Shown piece after piece: positions 4,054-50,970 of a stretch of 64,000 nucleotides of DNA (within the stretch, counting starts at the first letter, position 1; every line of letters begins with the position of its first letter). The position numbers were made by a program, and so were the translations under genes. The DNA comes from a phage, in sequence record OZ346222.1; one strand, written 5' to 3'. Below the pieces are notes generated by a model that worked only from the letters and a program-made list of their open reading frames with translations, ran no database searches and was not told the origin of the DNA.

Positions 4054-6447
4054 ATGAGTATGTGGTCTTTCGATTTTGAGTCATCCGGTTTGCTGGAAGA
4101 CCCAGATCTTTATTATCACTGCGGTCTGTTTAAAGAGCTGAATAAGAACCGTTTTATGCTGTTCCTTCCTCTAAATGACCGCACACACTACTCCGAGGAG
4201 GATATAGAAAAGGCTAAGAACTTCATTCTGTCAAAGAAAACTCTTTATAAAGATTTTGAAGTTCGCATAGCAGATTTTTCGGAGTTGGAAGGTTGGCTTA
4301 CAGGCAATTCTGACTGGTCACCAACAGCTTTGAACTGCCATAACTGCTACAGTTATGACTTTATGCTAATGGAAAGATTATCCGGTATTCATTTTGATAT
4401 GTTCCGTGATCCTAAATGCATGGGGACTATCAACGACCACCAGGTTAACCTGTTTGATACGTTGGCTATGAGCCGAATCTTGTGGCCTGATCGCCCTTTA
4501 CCAAAAGGTTGTCCGGACGCTGTATTCAACCCGGTTACTAAGAAAATGCAACCTGTTGGTCCTCACGGCCTTATGGCATGGGGCTACGCCCTTGGTAACC
4601 AGAAAGTTCAAATTGATGACTGGCGCGATCTTCCGTTGTGGAAGTATGTGGATCGTGTATTCGAGGACGTTATCATCCAGGAGCTGCTCTGGAAAGAGCT
4701 GGTAGCGGAATCAAAAGGTGTATTCTACGGCAAATCTGACATGCAGAACTTTATGTACGATCCAGCCAAAGAGAAGCCGAAAGGGTTCAAGAAGATCACC
4801 TGGAAGAACGCATTACGTCGAGGCATGCTGCAGCACTTCCTGATGGAGCTGCAGGCCCGTCAGGGTGTATACTTCGACATAGATGGAGCTATTGCTTTAC
4901 GTGACCGTTGCGATGCGTGGATGAAAGAAATCGCTGATCGTGTTGAACCACAACTACCTTTAAAAGAGCTGTCAATGTCTCAGCGGCCCAAGTTCCCTGA
5001 AAAGCCGTTTAACCAAGACGGGACAATCTCTAATAATGGTTGGAAATGGTTAAAAGATAAGCTTGGCTATCCTGTAGACATGAGTGCTTTAGAGTTCAAA
5101 GCCCCGCCTAAGCGAGCATTTACCTCTACAGGAGATGTCAGCAAGATGGGGATAAAATGGTGTGAAGAGATGGGCTGCAAAGACCCCGATAAGATGGCTG
5201 ATTTCTTGAGAGGCTATATTAAGGGCACCTCCACACCACAACCCTTACCTAAAGAGCTGATGGATCAGGCAATAAGTGATCTGCAGCAGAAGCGAATGCC
5301 TGACTGCAAGATACCTATGAAAATCAGCAATCAGGACGACATCAAGCGATACCTAATCAGTGCTGGTTGGCTCCCAACAATGTGGAGAACTAAAGATGTA
5401 ACTAAAGACAGCAAGAAGAAAGCTTTACCTGATGCAGATGTTGATGCACGAGTATATGCATATATGGACGAGCTTTTGGAGTCAGAGTATTGTGACCTAA
5501 TTATCAACTTCTGGAACAAAACTGATGCTAAGTTCCAGACAACCGTGCACAAGTTCCGAAGCTTTCCTAACTCCGAAAGGATTAAAAAGGAAGTATTCGG
5601 GAAAATACGTAGAAAAGCCAGGGCACTTATTACTTCTCCGCAACTGAAAGATACGTTTGGACACCTATGCCCAAATCTTGAAAAATTGAACGGAGAGATG
5701 GCTAAAGATATCGTCTTGTGGTTATCATTGCGAAACCGCAGATCGGTCCTTGATCCAATCAAGGAGGATAAGGTTGATACTGGTCTTCTTAATCACCCAC
5801 GTTTGAAGATTGACCATAAGCTTCCTGCTAAAAGCTCTGGATTAACAAACACTTCCAGACAGAAACACAGTATTTGTGCAAACATGCCTAAACCATCTCC
5901 TAAAGTGGTTATGGGTAAAGAGATGCGTAGTCTGTGGGGTGTTCCTCCGGGATACTTTGAGATCGGTATTGACGGGTCCAACTTAGAGCAGCTTATCGGG
6001 GCTTGGGGTGCCTTTGAGTTCGACAACGGCCTGTATTATGATGTTGTAAGTAACGGAGACGCACACCAAAACAATGCTGAGGCATATACAAAAGTGGCAG
6101 GCAGAGAGGTGTCCCGTAACGACGGTAAACCTATCACGTATGGGGTTATGTACGGGGCACAAAAAGATAAAGTTGCAGATATGTTGGACATCTCCCCAGA
6201 GTTGGGACAAAGGGTAATCGATGCACTCTGGGATGCCAACCCAGGTCTTAAGGGGCGCAAAGAGGATCTGGAGAAATTCTGGGAAGCAACAGGTAAGAAG
6301 TTTATCTACTCTTTTGATGGTCATGCTATCTGGACCCGATCTAAACACTCTTTACTTAATGCATACCAACAAAATGGCGGTGCATCGTTGTGTGACTTAG
6401 TTGGAATACTCATGCACCACCAGATGGTGAAGCGTGGGTGGTACGAT
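4054..6447 (+). CDS. DNA polymerase, family A (exon 1: 3'-5' exonuclease and polymerase motifs A and B)
   Basis: Exo I FDFESSG; motif A-like IDGSNLEQL; motif B-like KPITYGVMYGA; uninterrupted ORF runs to TAA at 6481-6483 but lacks the conserved C-terminal region; 3' boundary set at proposed 5' splice site. Confidence 0.75.
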
Positions 6448-6753
6448 GAAGGTGTTCGTCGTATTATTTATTACCATAAATAACATTGTGGCTTCATAGA
6501 GTAATCTATGTCGAATAACCTCTTTAACTGCGGGAAGCCTAAACCTTATGGCAAGGTAATCCGCAACGAAGCGCTCAAAAGAGCGAACGCTCAGAGGCCA
6601 TTCCGAAAGGAAGTAGACCAGCAAGTGCGGTCGAAATGGGAGGATTCCTGTGGTTGCTTATCATAGGAATATGAGATGGTCCGATCCTACGTGAAAACGT
6701 ATGGCTATGCACGTAATGGTGCGGGGTAGCTTAACGACCTACCTGAACTATTG
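6448..6753 (+). other. putative group I self-splicing intron (about 306 nt, no ORF) in DNA polymerase gene
   Basis: Four in-frame stops between two same-frame polymerase ORFs; P-like CTGCGGGAAG (6527-6537), Q-like AATCCGCAACG (6558-6568), R-like GTAGACCAGCAAG (6613-6625), S-like ATGAGATGGTCCGA (6671-6684) with R/S covariation; exon UACGAU (6442-6447) can pair with intron GUCGUA (6458-6463) giving U.G at splice site; G at 6753. Confidence 0.5.
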
Positions 6754-43952: not shown

Positions 43953-44303
43953 TTACTGCAACAGTTTTTCAATAGCCGCTTCCATGCTGCTTGCAACAGC
44001 CTGAACTCGGATATTCATCTCTTCTTGGTGGATCAGCTCCTTAAGCTCTTTAATGGTAAATTCTTTAGAGAAACCTTCCACCATAATCTTGTGCAAGGCT
44101 TCTTGCGTGTCTACTTGCAAGAACTTTTCCAGTTTGTTGGCAGAGGCTTCTAAATCAGCCCGAATACGAGGGTCATCTGTGCGATTCAGCATTAGGCGTA
44201 AGCCATCAAGATTAGTAGAAATAGCATCTGCATGTTGAGTAACTAACCGTGGCAAAATGAGATCTACAAACTTATTAGCCAAATCGATACGTTCTTGTGT
44301 CAC
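43953..44303 (-). CDS. hypothetical helical protein (116 aa)
   Basis: GTG start in ORF track. Confidence 0.4.
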   Translation of the reverse strand: MTQERIDLANKFVDLILPRLVTQHADAISTNLDGLRLMLNRTDDPRIRADLEASANKLEKFLQVDTQEALHKIMVEGFSKEFTIKELKELIHQEEMNIRVQAVASSMEAAIEKLLQ

Positions 44304-44413
44304 TGTTGCACCCCCTCTTCATCTTCATGATGTTTCTTTTCACGCTTGTGTTTTTTCTTAAGCTCAAGCGCAATCTCTTTCTTGTACGCCTTCTTCAAGG
44401 CTTTTTTAGCCAT
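44300..44413 (-). CDS. small lysine-rich basic protein (37 aa)
   Basis: ATG 5 nt after GGAGGTG; MAKKALKKAYKKEIALELKKKHKREKK. Confidence 0.35.
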   Translation of the reverse strand: MAKKALKKAYKKEIALELKKKHKREKKHHEDEEGVQQ

Positions 44414-44475
44414 TTGGCACCTCCTCTGCTTTCATTACGGCAATTATAACCAACTCAACAAAGCTTTGTCAACAA

Positions 44476-44949
44476 CTAGTCTACCTGAACCCAACCGCCT
44501 GATACTTTTTTAAACATTCTTTGGTTATCACTGCCTCGGAACGGTTTCTTGGTTGGTAAATCTTTTACATACTTACCGTCAATGATGATATCAGCCAGTT
44601 TAAGAACATCACTAGAGATATGGTCAAATGTGAACCCAGTATATACAAGAATAGTTTTCTTGTCACCAAATTTTTCCTTAATTTTCTCCATCAGGCTAAT
44701 AATATCTGGCTCATTATAGTATGCTAAGGGTTCTCCACCCAGTAGAGAGATACCGCACACAGACGGGTTATCTAAATCTGACAAGATTTTTTGCAAGTCT
44801 TCTTCAGTGAACTTCCTCCCCTTATCTTTTGACCAAAATGCCTGATTAAAGCAACCAGGGCAATCGTGTGGGCACCCAGATACCCACAAGGCAGTTCTAA
44901 TACCTGGTCCTTCGGTGTAAGATATTTCTGTGTATCCAGCAATGTTCAT
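44476..44949 (-). CDS. nrdG: anaerobic ribonucleotide reductase activating protein (radical SAM)
   Basis: CPHDCPGC (CxxxCxxC) cluster; adjacent to nrdD. Confidence 0.8.
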   Translation of the reverse strand: MNIAGYTEISYTEGPGIRTALWVSGCPHDCPGCFNQAFWSKDKGRKFTEEDLQKILSDLDNPSVCGISLLGGEPLAYYNEPDIISLMEKIKEKFGDKKTILVYTGFTFDHISSDVLKLADIIIDGKYVKDLPTKKPFRGSDNQRMFKKVSGGWVQVD

Positions 44950-45062
44950 AGATACTCCGCATCACATTTAGGGCAATGCCAAATAAAATCGTCTAGTGCC
45001 TTGCACCAACGAAGATTACAACTACAGCCGCACTTGCAAATTTTATAAATACCTGATGACAT
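44946..45062 (-). CDS. small cysteine-rich protein (38 aa) between nrdD and nrdG
   Basis: ATG 5 nt after AGGAGGTG; CKCGCSC ... CPKC; stop overlaps nrdG start. Confidence 0.4.
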   Translation of the reverse strand: MSSGIYKICKCGCSCNLRWCKALDDFIWHCPKCDAEYL

Positions 45063-45125
45063 ACTGCACCTCCTAGCTCACTGTGTGTCAATAATATGCC
45101 ACATCCTTGTGGCTTTTGTCAAGAA

Positions 45126-47249
45126 TCAGCAACCACAACTTCCGTAGTGCTTAACTCGCTCGATAACTTCCGCTTGCTTACCTTTATTGTAAGGACGGGA
45201 GTTAGGACTGGAAAGGTATCCAGACACACGTCGAATTACACTGATCGTTCCCTCTTCATGGTTTCCACACTCTGGGCATACAAAGCCTTTAGCTGTTGCA
45301 CTGAACTCACCAGAGAAACCACACTTGAGACATTTATCCACAGGTTGGTTAATACCAAAATACATAATGTGTTTATACCCGAAGTCAACAAGAGCCTCTA
45401 AAGCATCCAGGTTGTTTTTCAGGTTAGGTGTTTCTACGTATCCGATGTTGCCACCAGAGGAGATCATAGCAAAACCTTCCTCATACTCCCACTTATCAAA
45501 AGGAGAGCTATTTATCCATACTGGCTGATGGAAACTGTTGGTGAGATATTCATGCTCGTGCTTCAACACTTCCGGATATTCACGATCCAGACAGGTTGCA
45601 GCTTTATAGCATAGACTCTCAGAAGGAGTGCCGTACAAGCTAAATGCTAGTCTACTTTCCTTCTTGTATCGCTCACAAGCATCTCTCATGTGCTGAAGGA
45701 TTCCAAGAGCTAAAGCCTTGTCACCCTCTCTGCCCAAAATCTGACAGGTTTCATACACACCGATATACCCAATACTGATGGAAGCGTACCCGTCATAGAA
45801 GAGTTTATCAATACTCTCTTCAGGATCCAGGCGAGCAAGAGCGCCTTCACACCACATGATGGGGTTCTGCCCTGCCTTTGTTCCTTTTAGACGATTAACC
45901 CTTACAAGGTGAGCCTCGTATGCAAGATCCAAGTATTCGTCAAGAACTGCAAAGAAATCAACACCTTCCGTCTTAGCTTTTGCCGCAATCATTGGCAGGT
46001 TAAGGCTAACAACGCCTAAGTTAAATCTGCCAAGGTATTTCTCCTCGCCTGTTTCCAAGTCATTGTATTTGCTAAGAAAACTCCTGCAACCCATGCTAGT
46101 TACTTTGCCATCTGTCGAGCCTGTCACTTTTCTATTTAGTGGTACAGATACGAAGTCAGGATAGATACGTTCTGCACAGCATTCCAGAGCTAATCGTTTC
46201 AAATCATAGTTAGGATCCCCAGGGTTCATGTTGACACCCTCTTCCAGGAAGAACAGCACTTTAGGGAACACAGGTGTGATACGTTCTTCACCAAGACCCA
46301 TTTTGTGGACTTTCAGGTAGTTTTTGGTAATCATTCTACCAAAGACCGAGGTATCCAGTCCTAAACTCAATGTGATGAATGGAGTTTGCCCGTTGACAGA
46401 AGTTAACGTGTTGATTTGATAGAGCAAAGTCTGCATGCTGTCAAATACGTCTTTATCTGTCATTTGCATTGCAACAGTTTCAGCATCCGGCAACCAATGT
46501 TCCTGGCAAAATTTAAGGTTCTTCTCATAGGTTGCTTCAGCATACTGTGCCAGATAATGATCAATATGGCTCATAGTCTGACCACCATATTGAGCACTAG
46601 CTACCGCACTAGAGATTTGGCTAAGGATTGTTGTTGCAACCCCTATTGACTTCGGCTTACTGACATGGGCGTTACCAATGTTGAATCCGTTTTCCAACAT
46701 ATCTGGATAATTTACCAAACAACAGTTTGTTAACGGACTGATCAAGTAGTCAAGATCATGCACATGGATGAATCCTTTATTGTGCTCTTCGGAGACACGG
46801 TCTGGCAGGATCTGTGTTGATGCAAGGTGTTTGCTAAGAATACCTGCAAGCAGGTCGCGATGAGTGTGTACATGATTAGTAGGCTTATTTGCGTTTTCTT
46901 TTGTAAATTCATCACAAGTTCGATCCAAGAAGCCACTAATATCTGCAAGCAGTTTTCCACCTGCCTCTCTGTTATTATCTCTTGTCTGTCTATACTGGAT
47001 GTATTCTCTGGCTGCACATTTTAAACCCATATCCATAAGAGCATCTTCAACAAGGATATGGATATTTTTTACAGAGATCGTGCACTGGTCGGTTGGTAGA
47101 TTGTTAGCAACAACTTCATTAACCGCGCAGGCGATCCGGTAAGCTTCTTCTTCAGTATGTCCAGACTCAAGTAAGGCGGACTCTGCCGCCTTGATCACCT
47201 TAATTCCGTTATAGAACTCTTCTCTACCGTCCCGTTTTACAACTTTCAC
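45126..47249 (-). CDS. nrdD: anaerobic ribonucleoside-triphosphate reductase (class III)
   Basis: 707 aa; C-terminal glycyl-radical motif RVSGYL and Cys-rich zinc ribbon. Confidence 0.85.
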   Translation of the reverse strand: MKVVKRDGREEFYNGIKVIKAAESALLESGHTEEEAYRIACAVNEVVANNLPTDQCTISVKNIHILVEDALMDMGLKCAAREYIQYRQTRDNNREAGGKLLADISGFLDRTCDEFTKENANKPTNHVHTHRDLLAGILSKHLASTQILPDRVSEEHNKGFIHVHDLDYLISPLTNCCLVNYPDMLENGFNIGNAHVSKPKSIGVATTILSQISSAVASAQYGGQTMSHIDHYLAQYAEATYEKNLKFCQEHWLPDAETVAMQMTDKDVFDSMQTLLYQINTLTSVNGQTPFITLSLGLDTSVFGRMITKNYLKVHKMGLGEERITPVFPKVLFFLEEGVNMNPGDPNYDLKRLALECCAERIYPDFVSVPLNRKVTGSTDGKVTSMGCRSFLSKYNDLETGEEKYLGRFNLGVVSLNLPMIAAKAKTEGVDFFAVLDEYLDLAYEAHLVRVNRLKGTKAGQNPIMWCEGALARLDPEESIDKLFYDGYASISIGYIGVYETCQILGREGDKALALGILQHMRDACERYKKESRLAFSLYGTPSESLCYKAATCLDREYPEVLKHEHEYLTNSFHQPVWINSSPFDKWEYEEGFAMISSGGNIGYVETPNLKNNLDALEALVDFGYKHIMYFGINQPVDKCLKCGFSGEFSATAKGFVCPECGNHEEGTISVIRRVSGYLSSPNSRPYNKGKQAEVIERVKHYGSCGC

Positions 47250-47524
47250 TTTTTCTCTCCAAAACCATTCTTAACAAAAGAGATGAAATCGTCGGCACCG
47301 CCTATATGGACACTGTCAAGATCGCTTTCTAAGAAGATCTGTGGCAACGTTCTGGGGACAATTGGACTGCACTTCTCAATAAGCTCTTCTTTTGTGTAGC
47401 CCTCGCCAAGTGTCTTATATACAAAAGGCAGACCTTTGCTGATTGCAAATTCTTTTGCTCTGACACAATGTGGGCAGTTATCCTTACCGTAAATGATGAT
47501 GAAAAAAGATTTTTCGCAGCTCAT
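47246..47524 (-). CDS. glutaredoxin/NrdH-like redoxin
   Basis: CPHC active-site motif; 92 aa; between nrdB and nrdD. Confidence 0.75.
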   Translation of the reverse strand: MSCEKSFFIIIYGKDNCPHCVRAKEFAISKGLPFVYKTLGEGYTKEELIEKCSPIVPRTLPQIFLESDLDSVHIGGADDFISFVKNGFGEKK

Positions 47525-47527
47525 ATA

Positions 47528-48676
47528 TTAAAACTCCCAAATTTCTTCTTCAGCGTCGTTAACAGTTGTGTTGACGCGGTAGTCAGTGTTCGACATTTCT
47601 TGGTTCGCCGTCTGTTGTAATGAAGGTTTCATCCACACCTGCATAAACGGTAGCGGGTCCTTTGTTGGCGGCACAAAGTCTTTGTCGATGTCGTAGTAAT
47701 CATAAATCGGTGAGCAGTTATAGTCAACCCACTCTTTAAGCAACGGTGAGTTAAGACCTATAATCGCTCTTCCTTCGCTGAAAATATAGTCACTCCAACC
47801 GTACTCTTTGGTTCGTACTTCATCAAGAATCTCTTTTAACTCCCCCTTTATCTCAAGGAAGCTTTTCTCCCATGCGGGATCATTAAGCAAGATATCAATG
47901 ATGGCAAAATCACCTTTCGAATGTAGCATTTCGTCAAGCATGATTTTTTGAACAAGCTGCGCCACCTGAACAAAGATACCCTGTTCAGCTACTGCGAAAG
48001 TGCATGCAAAACTTGCAATAAACTCAATACTTTCCAGAGCTAAAAGCGCAAAAAGCGCTCTAAGAATGCATTTCCGCACAATATCTTCTTCAACACTAGA
48101 AGGATCCAGGCGGTATTTTGCACCAATAACCTCAAGCTCTTGCATGTATTTGACAATAACGCCGGATCTGCTCAGAACGTTTTGGTTTTCCTGAATCTCT
48201 TCTATAATCTCACGGGCATTGGGGAGGCATTGTCTAACAATCTCTGAGTAAGTTAGTGCGTGAAGAACTTCAATCTCTGACTGTTTCATCAATAGAGTGA
48301 AAAGCTCACTATTAGTGATGAATGGTGAAAAGAGGCAGATGATCGATCTTGCCGCAACGCTATCAGCCTCCCATTGCCACATCAAGGTCTGCACCATCAC
48401 GTCATAAGTTGACTTTGAGCATGTTACAAAATCTGAAATAGATTGCGACAAATCCACTTCATCCTCTGCCCAATCTTGCTCTTTTTGTTTTTTGTATAGT
48501 TCAAACAGTTGTGGATATTTTTTGTTGATAGAGTCGTACATACCCATTTGCTGTCCCAGAAACAGCGGATAGTCACCAGTTTTATGAGCGGTGTTCTCAG
48601 CATTAAATACAGCCATTATTCTACCTCTAAAATGGGGCCGAAGCCCCTTTAAAATTATAGTGCACAGCTTTCGCAA
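47528..48676 (-). CDS. nrdB: ribonucleotide reductase class Ia small subunit
   Basis: Di-iron ligand motif EVLHALTYSEI; 382 aa; adjacent to nrdA. Confidence 0.8.
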   Translation of the reverse strand: MRKLCTIILKGLRPHFRGRIMAVFNAENTAHKTGDYPLFLGQQMGMYDSINKKYPQLFELYKKQKEQDWAEDEVDLSQSISDFVTCSKSTYDVMVQTLMWQWEADSVAARSIICLFSPFITNSELFTLLMKQSEIEVLHALTYSEIVRQCLPNAREIIEEIQENQNVLSRSGVIVKYMQELEVIGAKYRLDPSSVEEDIVRKCILRALFALLALESIEFIASFACTFAVAEQGIFVQVAQLVQKIMLDEMLHSKGDFAIIDILLNDPAWEKSFLEIKGELKEILDEVRTKEYGWSDYIFSEGRAIIGLNSPLLKEWVDYNCSPIYDYYDIDKDFVPPTKDPLPFMQVWMKPSLQQTANQEMSNTDYRVNTTVNDAEEEIWEF

Positions 48677-50970
48677 TACGGATCTTCAACTGAACTATCT
48701 GCAATCAAAGGATAGTTCTTTCTGGTTTCATCTTCAGCCTGTTTCTTGGCATGAAGTTCCTCTGCCAAGGAGTCACCAGCACCAACCCTAGAGTTTAAAT
48801 AATACCATGTCTTCATCCCGAATTTAGTGGCACGGATAAGGTACCCTAACTGCTCCTTCATTGAAATTTTACCATCTTTCAACTTGGTGTAGTCTATGTA
48901 TAAATCCGCGCTGATTGCCTGACCTGTGAATTTTTGAATCACGGCATACATATCGATCATGTCGTTAGTATCAACGTCCCAAGCCGAGGTGTAATACTCT
49001 TTCAACTCATCATAGTCAGGAACGATAAACAGCACCTGCCCTTGTGGCGACTTTTTAAAGATAATGTGCTCACGGACAGGATAAACCCCGTTAGTGGTGT
49101 TTGTTGCCAGCGAAGAGCTTTCATTAGGCATATATGCTTCAAGAACGCTATTACGTAGCCCACCATTCTCAATGATTTCTTTACGTAACCCTTCCCAATC
49201 CTGTTTAAGAGAAGGATCTTTCACCACGCTATCGACCTCTTTGTTATAGGTGTCGATTGGTAACCAACCTTCTGGATATTTTGTTTTATGCATCCACTCG
49301 CAGACACCACGCTCTTTTGCCAACCGTAAACTTGCCTTATGCAAGCTGTAGCTGTGAAGTTCTGCAAGATCGTGAACGAGCTGTTTACTTTCAGGAGACC
49401 CGTAAGTAACCTTGTGGCTGGCAATAAAATGTGCAACATTGGTAAGGCCAACCCCGATGGATCTGCGTTTTTTAACTGTGCTTTCCATATTTTCATACGG
49501 ATATGTCATGATTTCCATAACATTGTCAATCATAAGCACCGTATAGTATGCAACATCCTCATACTCCTCTGGAGTAACCCTCCCAGCTACAAGAGATGAC
49601 AGGAAGCACAATGCAACCTCTCCATCATCAGCATCGTACTTGAAGATATTACGCATATCTGAATAGCCTTTTGTCGGGAGGGCTATTTCTGCACACAGGT
49701 TGCTTGAATAGATCACATCTTTAAAAGGTGTATGTCTATTCATCTCATCTGTCCAGTATACGTACAGCCTTCCCACCTCAGTGCGCTGCGTGATCAGTTC
49801 AACAGCAAGATCTCTAGCTCGGATCCATGTTTTAGGAATACTGTCATCTTTAGCAATACGATCAACCTCTGCATCAAACTCCTCCATAGACATGGTGAAG
49901 ATACCCTCATGCAGTTGAGGCGCGTGCTTATAAGAAACAAGCATCCAATCTAAATTCTTAGCCACACGGTTGATAAACGACCTATTAATACCGATGGAGT
50001 AGTCCATGGTGTTGATTCTTTTTGAAGCAACAGTCATAGGGTTTCTCAAACGGATTAGCTCATCAATCTGCGGGTCCAGTGCAAGGAATGATACTGTTGC
50101 AGAACCACCACGTGATTGTTGTCTGTTCTCCTTAACCCCAGCATCAATACCTCGATAATATGGAATCTTACCCATATGTTTAATAGTGTTACCACGAACA
50201 CCATCGCCTGCAGATCTTGAGGATAAGTAGTAGCCGATACCTGCTTGGTTAACCGTCATTGTGTACGCAACTTCACGTGCCACACCAATAGATTTTGCTG
50301 TATCGTCAGCTTTTATTACACAACAAGATGCATACCCTGTCTTACCTGTGCGCAGCCCGTTTAAGTACGGTGTTGGGGCATTGATCTTTAAGTCGGACAG
50401 ATAAGTGTATAATTTTACAACATCGTTGATACGACGTTCTTTCGGCATATTCTTCATGACAGCCATTGCTATCCCCATAAACATCATCTGGGGAGATTCA
50501 AACAAGGTGTCTTTAAGAGTATCCTTGATCCCGTATTTGTCGCGAAACTGTTTAAGGACTGCATAGCCATAACCGAGATCTTTACTGTGGTCAATAACAG
50601 CGTCTAAAGTGTTTAGCTCGGTAAAGCTATAACCCATATCCTCCCAATAACCTTTCTCAACCATGTCATTGTAAAATGATGGTAAGGAAGGGATCTTTGT
50701 AAACCCTCCAAAAGCCTCTTTATAGATCTGACCAATAAGAACACGACCAGCCATACGGGAATGTGCTTCGTCTTTACGGCTAACACAAGAGTCTATAATA
50801 GCTTGGTTAACTTCTTTGGTTGTACATCCATCATACAACCGCTTGTAGGCATCCAGTGCAATATGTGACCAATTGCCGTTACCATCGTCACCGAAAATAG
50901 CTGCCTTATTTAAACGTTCTGGATCGAATGCCACTTCACATCCGTTGCTTTTAATTACCTTGGTGATCAA
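48655..50970 (-). CDS. nrdA: ribonucleotide reductase class Ia large subunit
   Basis: 771 aa; active-site NLCAEI; C-terminal CESCAL redox cysteines. Confidence 0.85.
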   Translation of the reverse strand: MITKVIKSNGCEVAFDPERLNKAAIFGDDGNGNWSHIALDAYKRLYDGCTTKEVNQAIIDSCVSRKDEAHSRMAGRVLIGQIYKEAFGGFTKIPSLPSFYNDMVEKGYWEDMGYSFTELNTLDAVIDHSKDLGYGYAVLKQFRDKYGIKDTLKDTLFESPQMMFMGIAMAVMKNMPKERRINDVVKLYTYLSDLKINAPTPYLNGLRTGKTGYASCCVIKADDTAKSIGVAREVAYTMTVNQAGIGYYLSSRSAGDGVRGNTIKHMGKIPYYRGIDAGVKENRQQSRGGSATVSFLALDPQIDELIRLRNPMTVASKRINTMDYSIGINRSFINRVAKNLDWMLVSYKHAPQLHEGIFTMSMEEFDAEVDRIAKDDSIPKTWIRARDLAVELITQRTEVGRLYVYWTDEMNRHTPFKDVIYSSNLCAEIALPTKGYSDMRNIFKYDADDGEVALCFLSSLVAGRVTPEEYEDVAYYTVLMIDNVMEIMTYPYENMESTVKKRRSIGVGLTNVAHFIASHKVTYGSPESKQLVHDLAELHSYSLHKASLRLAKERGVCEWMHKTKYPEGWLPIDTYNKEVDSVVKDPSLKQDWEGLRKEIIENGGLRNSVLEAYMPNESSSLATNTTNGVYPVREHIIFKKSPQGQVLFIVPDYDELKEYYTSAWDVDTNDMIDMYAVIQKFTGQAISADLYIDYTKLKDGKISMKEQLGYLIRATKFGMKTWYYLNSRVGAGDSLAEELHAKKQAEDETRKNYPLIADSSVEDPYCESCAL

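Follow-up and report, generated by a model that had tools for sequence, protein, structure and literature searches.

A cysteine-rich micro-gene between nrdD and nrdG of Vequintavirus phages is conserved and shared with podophages of Escherichia coli

The stretch of phage DNA analyzed here (64,000 nucleotides of record OZ346222.1, referred to in its entirety as the window) carries a cluster of ribonucleotide reductase (RNR) genes at 44476-50970. In the order in which they are read on the minus strand, the genes are nrdA, nrdB, a gene for a CPHC glutaredoxin, nrdD, a Cys-rich open reading frame (ORF) of 38 amino acids and nrdG, and overlapping stop and start codons at nrdA (TTGA), nrdD (GTGA) and nrdG (ATGA) chain them together (Table 1). 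This gene set and leftward layout had been described in an earlier sequence-only reading of the same DNA, at coordinates that the ORF list and the sequence bear out, and the small ORF had there been proposed to encode a zinc-ribbon accessory factor for NrdG, translationally coupled to it. The window belongs to Vequintavirus, the genus of rV5-like E. coli myophages. It is 97-99.9% identical to many deposited genomes, its annotation agrees with that of JohannBauhin, and the 2.9 kb around nrdG-nrdD are 99.9% identical to Escherichia phages ECO111 5-P, rV5_ev147/ev156 and JohannBauhin; 122 phage records, essentially all of them Vequintavirus, match the nrdG-nrdD region at an identity of at least 90%. 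The region is the standard deoxynucleotide-supply operon of the genus. More than 100 deposited rV5-like genomes already have the RNR cluster annotated, and both the aerobic and the anaerobic RNR subunits appear in the rV5 genome paper (Kropinski et al. 2013, PMC3606486), so that describing the cluster here adds nothing new. What the ordinary cluster does offer is a modest lead: its small ORF encodes a conserved hypothetical micro-protein whose PHROG annotation is mislabelled, and the gene has passed, as a precise cassette of its own, between a myovirus and a podovirus lineage of E. coli phages.

A genuine small gene with zinc-ribbon-like motifs

The small ORF is a real gene under purifying selection. 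We compared 11 distinct copies, drawn from the window, its congeners, an uncultured sister clade and podophages, over 28 core codons. The variable sites numbered 9, 5 and 20 at codon positions 1, 2 and 3, respectively, and the ratio of nonsynonymous to synonymous divergence (dN/dS, Nei-Gojobori) was 0.01-0.33 for all pairs; saturation of synonymous sites was frequent. For the shortfall of nonsynonymous changes, the binomial P was 1.6e-7 for the window against the sister-clade contig L014 and 3e-6 for the copy in podophage ACG-C91 (L003) against that in rV5 (L008). A purine run resembling a Shine-Dalgarno sequence precedes every copy examined, podophage copies included, and the strong ribosome-binding site reported for the window copy in the sequence-only reading is indeed there, as an AGGAGG 6 nt before the ATG (Table 1). 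The check proposed in that reading, a comparison of nrdD-nrdG regions in related phages, finds the small ORF conserved. Dozens of contigs carry the exact 38-aa protein (MSSGIYKICKCGCSCNLRWCKALDDFIWHCPKCDAEYL), which is already in NCBI as a hypothetical protein (for example, bas53_0180). Its family is PHROG 20137 (match at 4.7e-30), whose label, "ribonucleotide reductase", appears to have been propagated from misannotated records. In the literature we found neither a paper on the small ORF, on its accessions or on its PHROG nor expression data from Vequintavirus that include it.

It is extremely improbable that the small ORF is a chance frame between nrdD and nrdG, or an artefact of annotation there, conserved on account of promoter, terminator or nrdG ribosome-binding signals. 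Such an explanation can draw on the shortness of the ORF, on a promoter-like match and a hairpin directly upstream, and on the original rV5 record, which annotated a different frame at this place (ORF114) and did not call the Cys-rich one. However, the protein has been kept while synonymous sites have come near saturation, and most of the variation falls at third codon positions. The other sense frames over the small ORF contain stops, the ORF114 frame of rV5 being truncated in the window, and the ORF has moved to podophages alone, with its flanks left behind. The evidence for selection has effectively refuted this explanation already.

The sequence of the small protein is built around two knuckles, C9-x-C11-G and C30-P-x-C33, with additional conserved cysteines at C13, C15 and C20. 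All seven cysteines are invariant in the aligned sets, and one variant, P0007, found on three contigs, carries C20R. Also invariant in both alignments are L17-R18-W19, D24-D25, I27-W28, P31 and E36-Y37. Position 29 alternates between His and Tyr among relatives, so that His29 is not a conserved ligand. Copies from the sister clade combine a canonical CxxCG first knuckle with the CPxC of the second.

From a 13-sequence alignment, AlphaFold2 modelled three strands (residues 16-20, 25-30 and 35-37) at a predicted local distance difference test (pLDDT) score of 65. A Foldseek comparison of this model with the PDB placed zinc ribbons at the top (ribosomal proteins, RPB9, a NUDIX N-terminal domain and ZifS), none of them significant (E >= 1.6) for a model so small and of such modest confidence, and sequence searches of Pfam, NCBIfam and the PDB gave no match (PDB profile E >= 0.19). 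We infer from the model and the motifs that the protein folds as a three-stranded zinc ribbon, in which one metal ion would be held by C9/C11 and C30/C33, leaving C13, C15 and C20 free to form a second metal site, mediate dimerisation or contact a partner. The earlier proposal of a small zinc-ribbon accessory factor stands as far as the zinc-ribbon-like motifs are concerned; its second half, a role as accessory to NrdG, is weakened by the genomic contexts described below. We also considered a CDGSH iron-sulfur domain (C-x-C-x2-(S/T)-x3-P-x-C-D-G-(S/A/T)-H) and rejected it: the PDB match is at chance level (E 5.4), the Pro and the DG(S/A/T)H are missing, and the C-x-C spacing becomes C-x2-C in the sister clade.

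A narrow family in unrelated genomic contexts

The family of the small ORF is narrow. We searched 50,697 phage records by tblastn and 5.8e9 proteins with a profile, and scanned 1.84e9 cluster representatives with HMMER without an index. Across all three approaches only three groups were recovered: Vequintavirus, with a protein of 38 aa; the uncultured sister clade (contigs L012-L014), with proteins of 41-54 aa, a CxxCG first knuckle and, in some, a Lys/Glu-rich N-terminal extension; and SP6-like podophages of the ACG-C91 type (Vectrevirus), with a protein of 36 aa. Scans of IMG/VR with degenerate DNA patterns returned only ACG-C91 and two Vequintavirus contigs. Two further hits, P0043 and P0044, were considered as remote homologues and rejected as repeat artefacts. 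The small protein is among the most strongly conserved proteins of its segment. Between the window and the sister clade its core is 89-93% identical in amino acids, compared with 70-79% for NrdD and 48-55% for NrdG, which makes it the most constrained of the three. The searches also recovered two odd forms on short ENA contigs. In P0013 (70 aa, on a 523-bp contig) the small ORF is fused after CPKCD to an unrelated tail that contains CDNCG, and in P0042 (62 aa, on a 1473-bp contig) it runs on after RWC into the C-terminal half of ORF116, a gene introduced below. These chimeras are either products of recombination or deletion or artefacts of assembly.

In the podophages, the small ORF lies between a gene for a nucleotide kinase (DUF3310) and one for an ATP-dependent DNA ligase, and it again overlaps the gene downstream, here the ligase, by ATGA. 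A tblastn search of the complete ACG-C91 genome with NrdA, NrdB, NrdD, NrdG and the glutaredoxin found no homologue of any of them; it returned only short chance matches of 10-41 aa, the best with an E of 0.009 over 20 aa. Homology between the myophages and the podophages is limited to the small ORF, and the flanks are unrelated. The slot between kinase and ligase in Vectrevirus holds three alternative small ORFs with the same boundaries (TAATATG ... ATGAATAT), at L015 769-885, L016 769-942 and L003 3998-4108. The alternative in K1E (AQY55013.1) encodes an unrelated protein of 38 aa with CPNCG...CHSC, and that in vB_EcoP_C a Cys-free protein of 57 aa, so that two of the three slot ORFs encode Cys-knuckle proteins of 36-38 aa without detectable mutual homology. 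The K1E protein resembles the ACG-C91 copy in size, in its two Cys knuckles, in its slot and in its ATGA overlap with the ligase gene, but it has four cysteines where the small protein of the window has seven. We rejected it as a homologue, hhalign aligning a single 8-residue knuckle only, and regard the two as analogous.

The junction between the small ORF and nrdG varies within the myophages. The ATGA overlap occurs in genomes of the window type and in the sister-clade contigs L013 and L014. In rV5, Alma and the third sister-clade contig, L012, the small ORF instead ends in TAA, and nrdG comes only after ORF115 and ORF116, or an analogue. The insertion lies at L008 1633-2005 in rV5, at a point equivalent to 44946-44949 of the window. 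ORF115 encodes 34 aa. ORF116 encodes 78 aa (PHROG 3249), is itself coupled to nrdG by ATGA and is present in about 33 phage records, with homologues that are 56-71% identical in Rtp-like siphophages. The translational coupling to nrdG proposed in the sequence-only reading therefore holds as an ATGA overlap in the lineage of the window and is not a property of the genus, about 33 rV5-type genomes interposing ORF116.

The divergence extends into nrdG itself, of which the genus carries two alleles that are 53% identical as proteins, one of the window type and one of the rV5 type. In blastn comparisons, a mosaic segment that covers codons 1 to about 118 (44594-44941 of the window) is strongly diverged from the allele of the rV5 type. 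The divergence begins exactly at the stop codon of the small ORF and ends within nrdG, the last 27 or so codons of which show about 91% nucleotide identity. The small protein is nearly identical with either allele. Outside the clade, the nearest phages with nrdD and nrdG have the two genes directly adjacent, without the small ORF, and most phages that carry nrdDG lack it.

Possible functions of the small protein

With moderate confidence, we favor a model in which the 38-aa product is a portable mini-protein, stabilised by metal, that binds and acts on a shared target and is not a dedicated subunit of NrdG. The small ORF would be translated from its own strong ribosome-binding site, and in the lineage of the window ribosomes terminating at its TGA may restart at the overlapping ATG of nrdG and so feed nrdG expression. 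The gene would be self-contained and horizontally exchangeable, at home in nucleotide- and DNA-metabolism operons of unrelated coliphages, and its binding partner would have to be available to both phage types, either as an E. coli factor or as a shared component of replication or nucleotide metabolism. Because the small ORF also occurs in phages without an RNR, it is probably no dedicated helper of the anaerobic enzyme. The NrdG accessory factor of the sequence-only reading is weakened at this point: co-occurrence with nrdD and nrdG breaks down in the RNR-less podophages of the ACG-C91 type, in which the small ORF is coupled to a DNA ligase gene.

Several observations weigh against the portable binding protein that we favor. 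In all myophage genomes examined, the sister clade included, the small ORF lies immediately 3' of nrdD and 5' of nrdG, and a position between these two genes is the classic signature of a functional link. E. coli encodes its own nrdDG, and the podophage copy could act on the host NrdD or NrdG. Both contexts are nucleotide-metabolism operons, so that the role of the protein may lie in dNTP (deoxynucleoside triphosphate) synthesis. The fold model is mediocre (pLDDT 65), neither structure nor sequence gave a significant match, and the literature search found no expression, metal or interaction data for the small ORF.

These observations are in part the case for a dedicated accessory of the class III RNR, which we regard as a live but less likely alternative. 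The protein would have its binding site on NrdG or on the glycyl-radical/Zn-ribbon domain at the C-terminus of NrdD, of either phage or host, and would aid activation, for instance by donating metal or Fe-S, by passing electrons to the radical-SAM cluster in the manner of a rubredoxin or by stabilising the complex of NrdD and NrdG. About 121 Vequintavirus records and L012-L014 keep strictly to the order nrdD-small ORF-nrdG, the ATGA coupling to nrdG recurs in the window type, L013 and L014, the protein is rich in cysteines arranged in knuckles of the rubredoxin/zinc-ribbon type, and host enzymes would offer the podophage copies a target. Against this, the small ORF is found in podophages without an RNR, coupled to DNA ligase; the coupling to nrdG is lacking in rV5-type genomes and in L012; the great majority of phages with nrdDG do not carry the small ORF; the small protein does not co-vary with the two NrdG alleles; and the GSCGC tail of Vequintavirus NrdD is not co-conserved with the small ORF. 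The NrdD and NrdG of E. coli and T4 are not known to need such a factor, nor is a small Cys-rich ORF known to be part of these characterised systems. A related possibility, quite unlikely in our judgement, joins portability to the reductase: the seven-Cys protein would be a portable metal-centre partner of glycyl-radical RNR activation, acting on the enzyme of the phage or of the host. The protein could be a donor of electrons or metal to the NrdG cluster, akin to a mini-rubredoxin, or a clamp on the zinc-ribbon/glycyl-radical domain of NrdD, and podophages without an RNR could use it because it would act on the host enzyme too.

A cis-acting leader has a fainter chance still. According to this explanation, the strong ribosome-binding site would load ribosomes that reinitiate at the start of nrdG or of the ligase gene, the peptide itself being dispensable, and the seven Cys codons might make this delivery depend on how much cysteine is available. 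Such a leader would fit the presence of an ATGA overlap with the next gene in two unrelated contexts, and it would fit the podophage slot, whose three unrelated ORFs overlap the ligase start identically at their ends. However, the amino acid sequence is under strong purifying selection that extends to residues other than cysteine (LRW, DDFIW, EYL), and the copies that end in TAA without a coupled gene, in rV5-type genomes and L012, are equally conserved. A binding protein that travels between operons remains our preferred reading. Were the small protein to prove a modulator of a host factor or of dNTP synthesis under anaerobic conditions, it would provide a compact example of a micro-protein from a phage.

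The reductase genes, their surroundings and known counterparts

Family models agree with the identities given to the other genes in the sequence-only reading, namely class Ia-type nrdA and nrdB, a CPHC redoxin, an nrdD with an RVSGYL motif and nrdG. The TTG start of nrdA overlaps the stop of the ORF upstream, its coordinates agree with the JohannBauhin annotation, and its product ends in ...YCESCAL. NrdA matches Pfam Ribonuc_red_lgC (2e-100) and lgN (7e-14) and lies above the cut-off of TIGR02506 NrdE_NrdA (499.7 bits vs 341); its best subfamily is class 1a PRK09103 (residues 4-744), at a score below the equivalog cut-off of that model (520 vs 813). For nrdB, the start is most likely the ATG at 48616, because it is so annotated in JohannBauhin and the family profile alignment begins there; a TTG at 48676 is only the mechanical limit of the ORF. 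NrdB matches Pfam Ribonuc_red_sm (8e-30), and its best NCBIfam match, class Ia beta PRK09101, is below cut-off (150.6 vs 346). Its best PDB matches are class Ia R2 proteins, with E. coli R2 among them and 7mdi_E at the top. In the alignment with 7mdi_E, query and target have the same residues in the columns DS, E..H...Y, LE and DE.LH, and we take these to be the iron ligands and radical tyrosine of E. coli R2 (D84/E115/H118/Y122/E204/E238/H241). Judged by these matches, NrdA and NrdB appear to be a divergent phage version of the class Ia type. The redoxin exceeds the cut-off of Pfam Glutaredoxin PF00462 (34.1 bits vs 22.9), falls below the cut-offs of the GrxA/Grx3 NCBIfam equivalogs and matches PHROG 22 (thioredoxin domain). 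NrdA and NrdB make up the aerobic class Ia-type reductase, which has the phage's own glutaredoxin-like protein as electron donor.

Table 1. Features of the RNR cluster and its flanks in the window
Feature	Position	Strand	Size or sequence	Details and basis
nrdA, class I RNR large subunit	48655..50970	minus	771 aa	TTG start; Pfam, TIGR02506
nrdB, class I RNR small subunit	47528..48616	minus	362 aa	Pfam, NCBIfam, PDB alignment
Glutaredoxin-like redoxin	47246..47524	minus	92 aa	CPHC at 47476-47465 (residues 17-20); stop overlaps nrdD GTG
nrdD, class III (anaerobic) ribonucleoside-triphosphate reductase	45126..47249	minus	707 aa	Uninterrupted; GTG start overlaps redoxin stop (GTGA)
Sigma-70-like promoter match	45093..45122	minus	TTGACA-18-CATATT, TG before	nrdD/small-ORF spacer; consensus scan
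Shine-Dalgarno sequence of small ORF	45074-45069	minus	AGGAGG	6 nt before small-ORF ATG; read from sequence
Cys-rich small ORF, zinc-ribbon-like	44946..45062	minus	38 aa, ~4.4 kDa	Stop TGA overlaps nrdG ATG (ATGA)
nrdG, radical-SAM activase of NrdD	44476..44949	minus	157 aa	C26-PHD-C30-PG-C33 (CxxxCxxC)
Perfect-consensus sigma-70 match	44443..44472	minus	TTGACA-18-TATAAT	Just downstream of nrdG; consensus scan

The anaerobic pair is more typical of its models. NrdD has an ATP-cone (residues 1-91), a Zn ribbon (CLKCG...CPECG) and the RVSGYL motif at 45230-45213 (Gly677 by count), and matches Pfam NRDD (1.2e-160), Gly_radical (2.9e-23) and ATP-cone (4e-13). It passes both NF006732 (825.3 bits vs 657; protein residues 1-702 on profile positions 3-706 of 712) and TIGR02487 (534.7 bits vs 326). 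NrdG passes TIGR02491 (149.1 bits vs 126.1) and matches Pfam Fer4_12 (1.3e-42) and Radical_SAM (1e-9). NrdD is the anaerobic glycyl-radical reductase, with NrdG as its radical-SAM activase. In Vequintavirus, NrdD ends in ...RVKHYGSCGC (45126-45140 in the window), with an extra Cys pair. The GSCGC tail is absent from the sister clade L012-L014 and from L005. We considered a pairing of this tail with the extra cysteines of the small protein and rejected it, the sister clade keeping the small ORF without the tail.

The nrdD gene of the window is an intron-less allele. The sequence-only reading had noted that no intron is apparent in these genes, and this is borne out by an Rfam scan of 44476-50970, which returned none, and by the end-to-end alignment of nrdD with its profile. 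Group I introns in the nrdD of relatives were seen with targeted E-value searches, nothing reaching the Rfam gathering threshold. Relatives of the slur16 type carry an insertion of 797 bp with an HNH endonuclease ORF exactly at 46389/46390 (L002 3491-4287), which gives a weak Intron_gpI match (28.8 bits). The IMG/VR relative L004 has insertions of about 257 bp without an ORF (L004 1044-1300 and 1572-1811), with Intron_gpI scores of 27.4 bits at the 46389/46390 site and 70.5 bits at about 46080-46089. In the sister-clade contigs L012-L014, HNH/NUMOD4 ORFs cut nrdD into 2-4 pieces. Elsewhere in the window, a group I catalytic intron (Rfam, 64.7 bits, full-length model) lies at 6468-6703 on the plus strand, at the 3' end of an 809-aa ORF (4054-6483) with a weak DNA_pol_A match, and the family-A DNA polymerase gene of the window is probably split by it.

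The consensus scan found as many sigma-70-like sites in the region as are expected from shuffled sequence. The match in the spacer between nrdD and the small ORF overlaps a 6-bp hairpin at 45113-45098, and its sequence is kept in rV5 and not in the sister clade. The equivalent of the match downstream of nrdG is annotated as promoter P118 in the rV5 record. Judging from its position, this match likely serves the next genes and marks the 3' limit of the nrd transcription unit. The genes that follow nrdG are a 37-aa Lys/Glu-rich ORF at 44300-44413 on the minus strand (PHROG 7670) and one that overlaps it at 43953-44303. Among the records that matched the window, 18-19 GenBank entries in the MG0656xx series are named "Campylobacter phage" (C12, C14, D1, A142 and others) and are 95-100% identical to Vequintavirus here; their host labels are probably wrong, or the preparations mixed.

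The closest known counterparts of the cluster are the nrd genes of rV5 and other Vequintavirus phages (gp109-112 and gp117), which are the same genes in the same order with the same sequences. Relative to rV5, with its ORF115 and ORF116 between the small ORF and nrdG, the window differs in carrying the slur16/JohannBauhin-type nrdG allele and in having the small ORF directly coupled to it. The ATP-cone, the NRDD barrel, the C-terminal Cys4 zinc ribbon and the glycyl-radical loop of T4 and E. coli NrdD are all present in the window protein, which differs in its additional GSCGC tail and in its RVSGYL motif, the corresponding motif of E. coli and T4 being RVCGYL. The CxxxCxxC motif is common to NrdG of the window, T4 and E. 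coli. In T4-like phages, nrdG comes after nrdD either at once or with a homing-endonuclease gene in between. As with the I-TevII-type group I intron of T4 nrdD, the nrdD genes of the window's congeners carry Intron_gpI elements with or without an HNH ORF, whereas that of the window is empty. The small protein itself compares best with zinc-ribbon and rubredoxin-knuckle domains such as those of RPB9, eL43 and Thermus thermophilus ZifS, with which it has in common the pattern C-x(1-2)-C-G ... C-P-x-C and a predicted three-stranded sheet. Unlike generic zinc ribbons, it mostly has CxC as its first knuckle and carries three extra cysteines without a counterpart.

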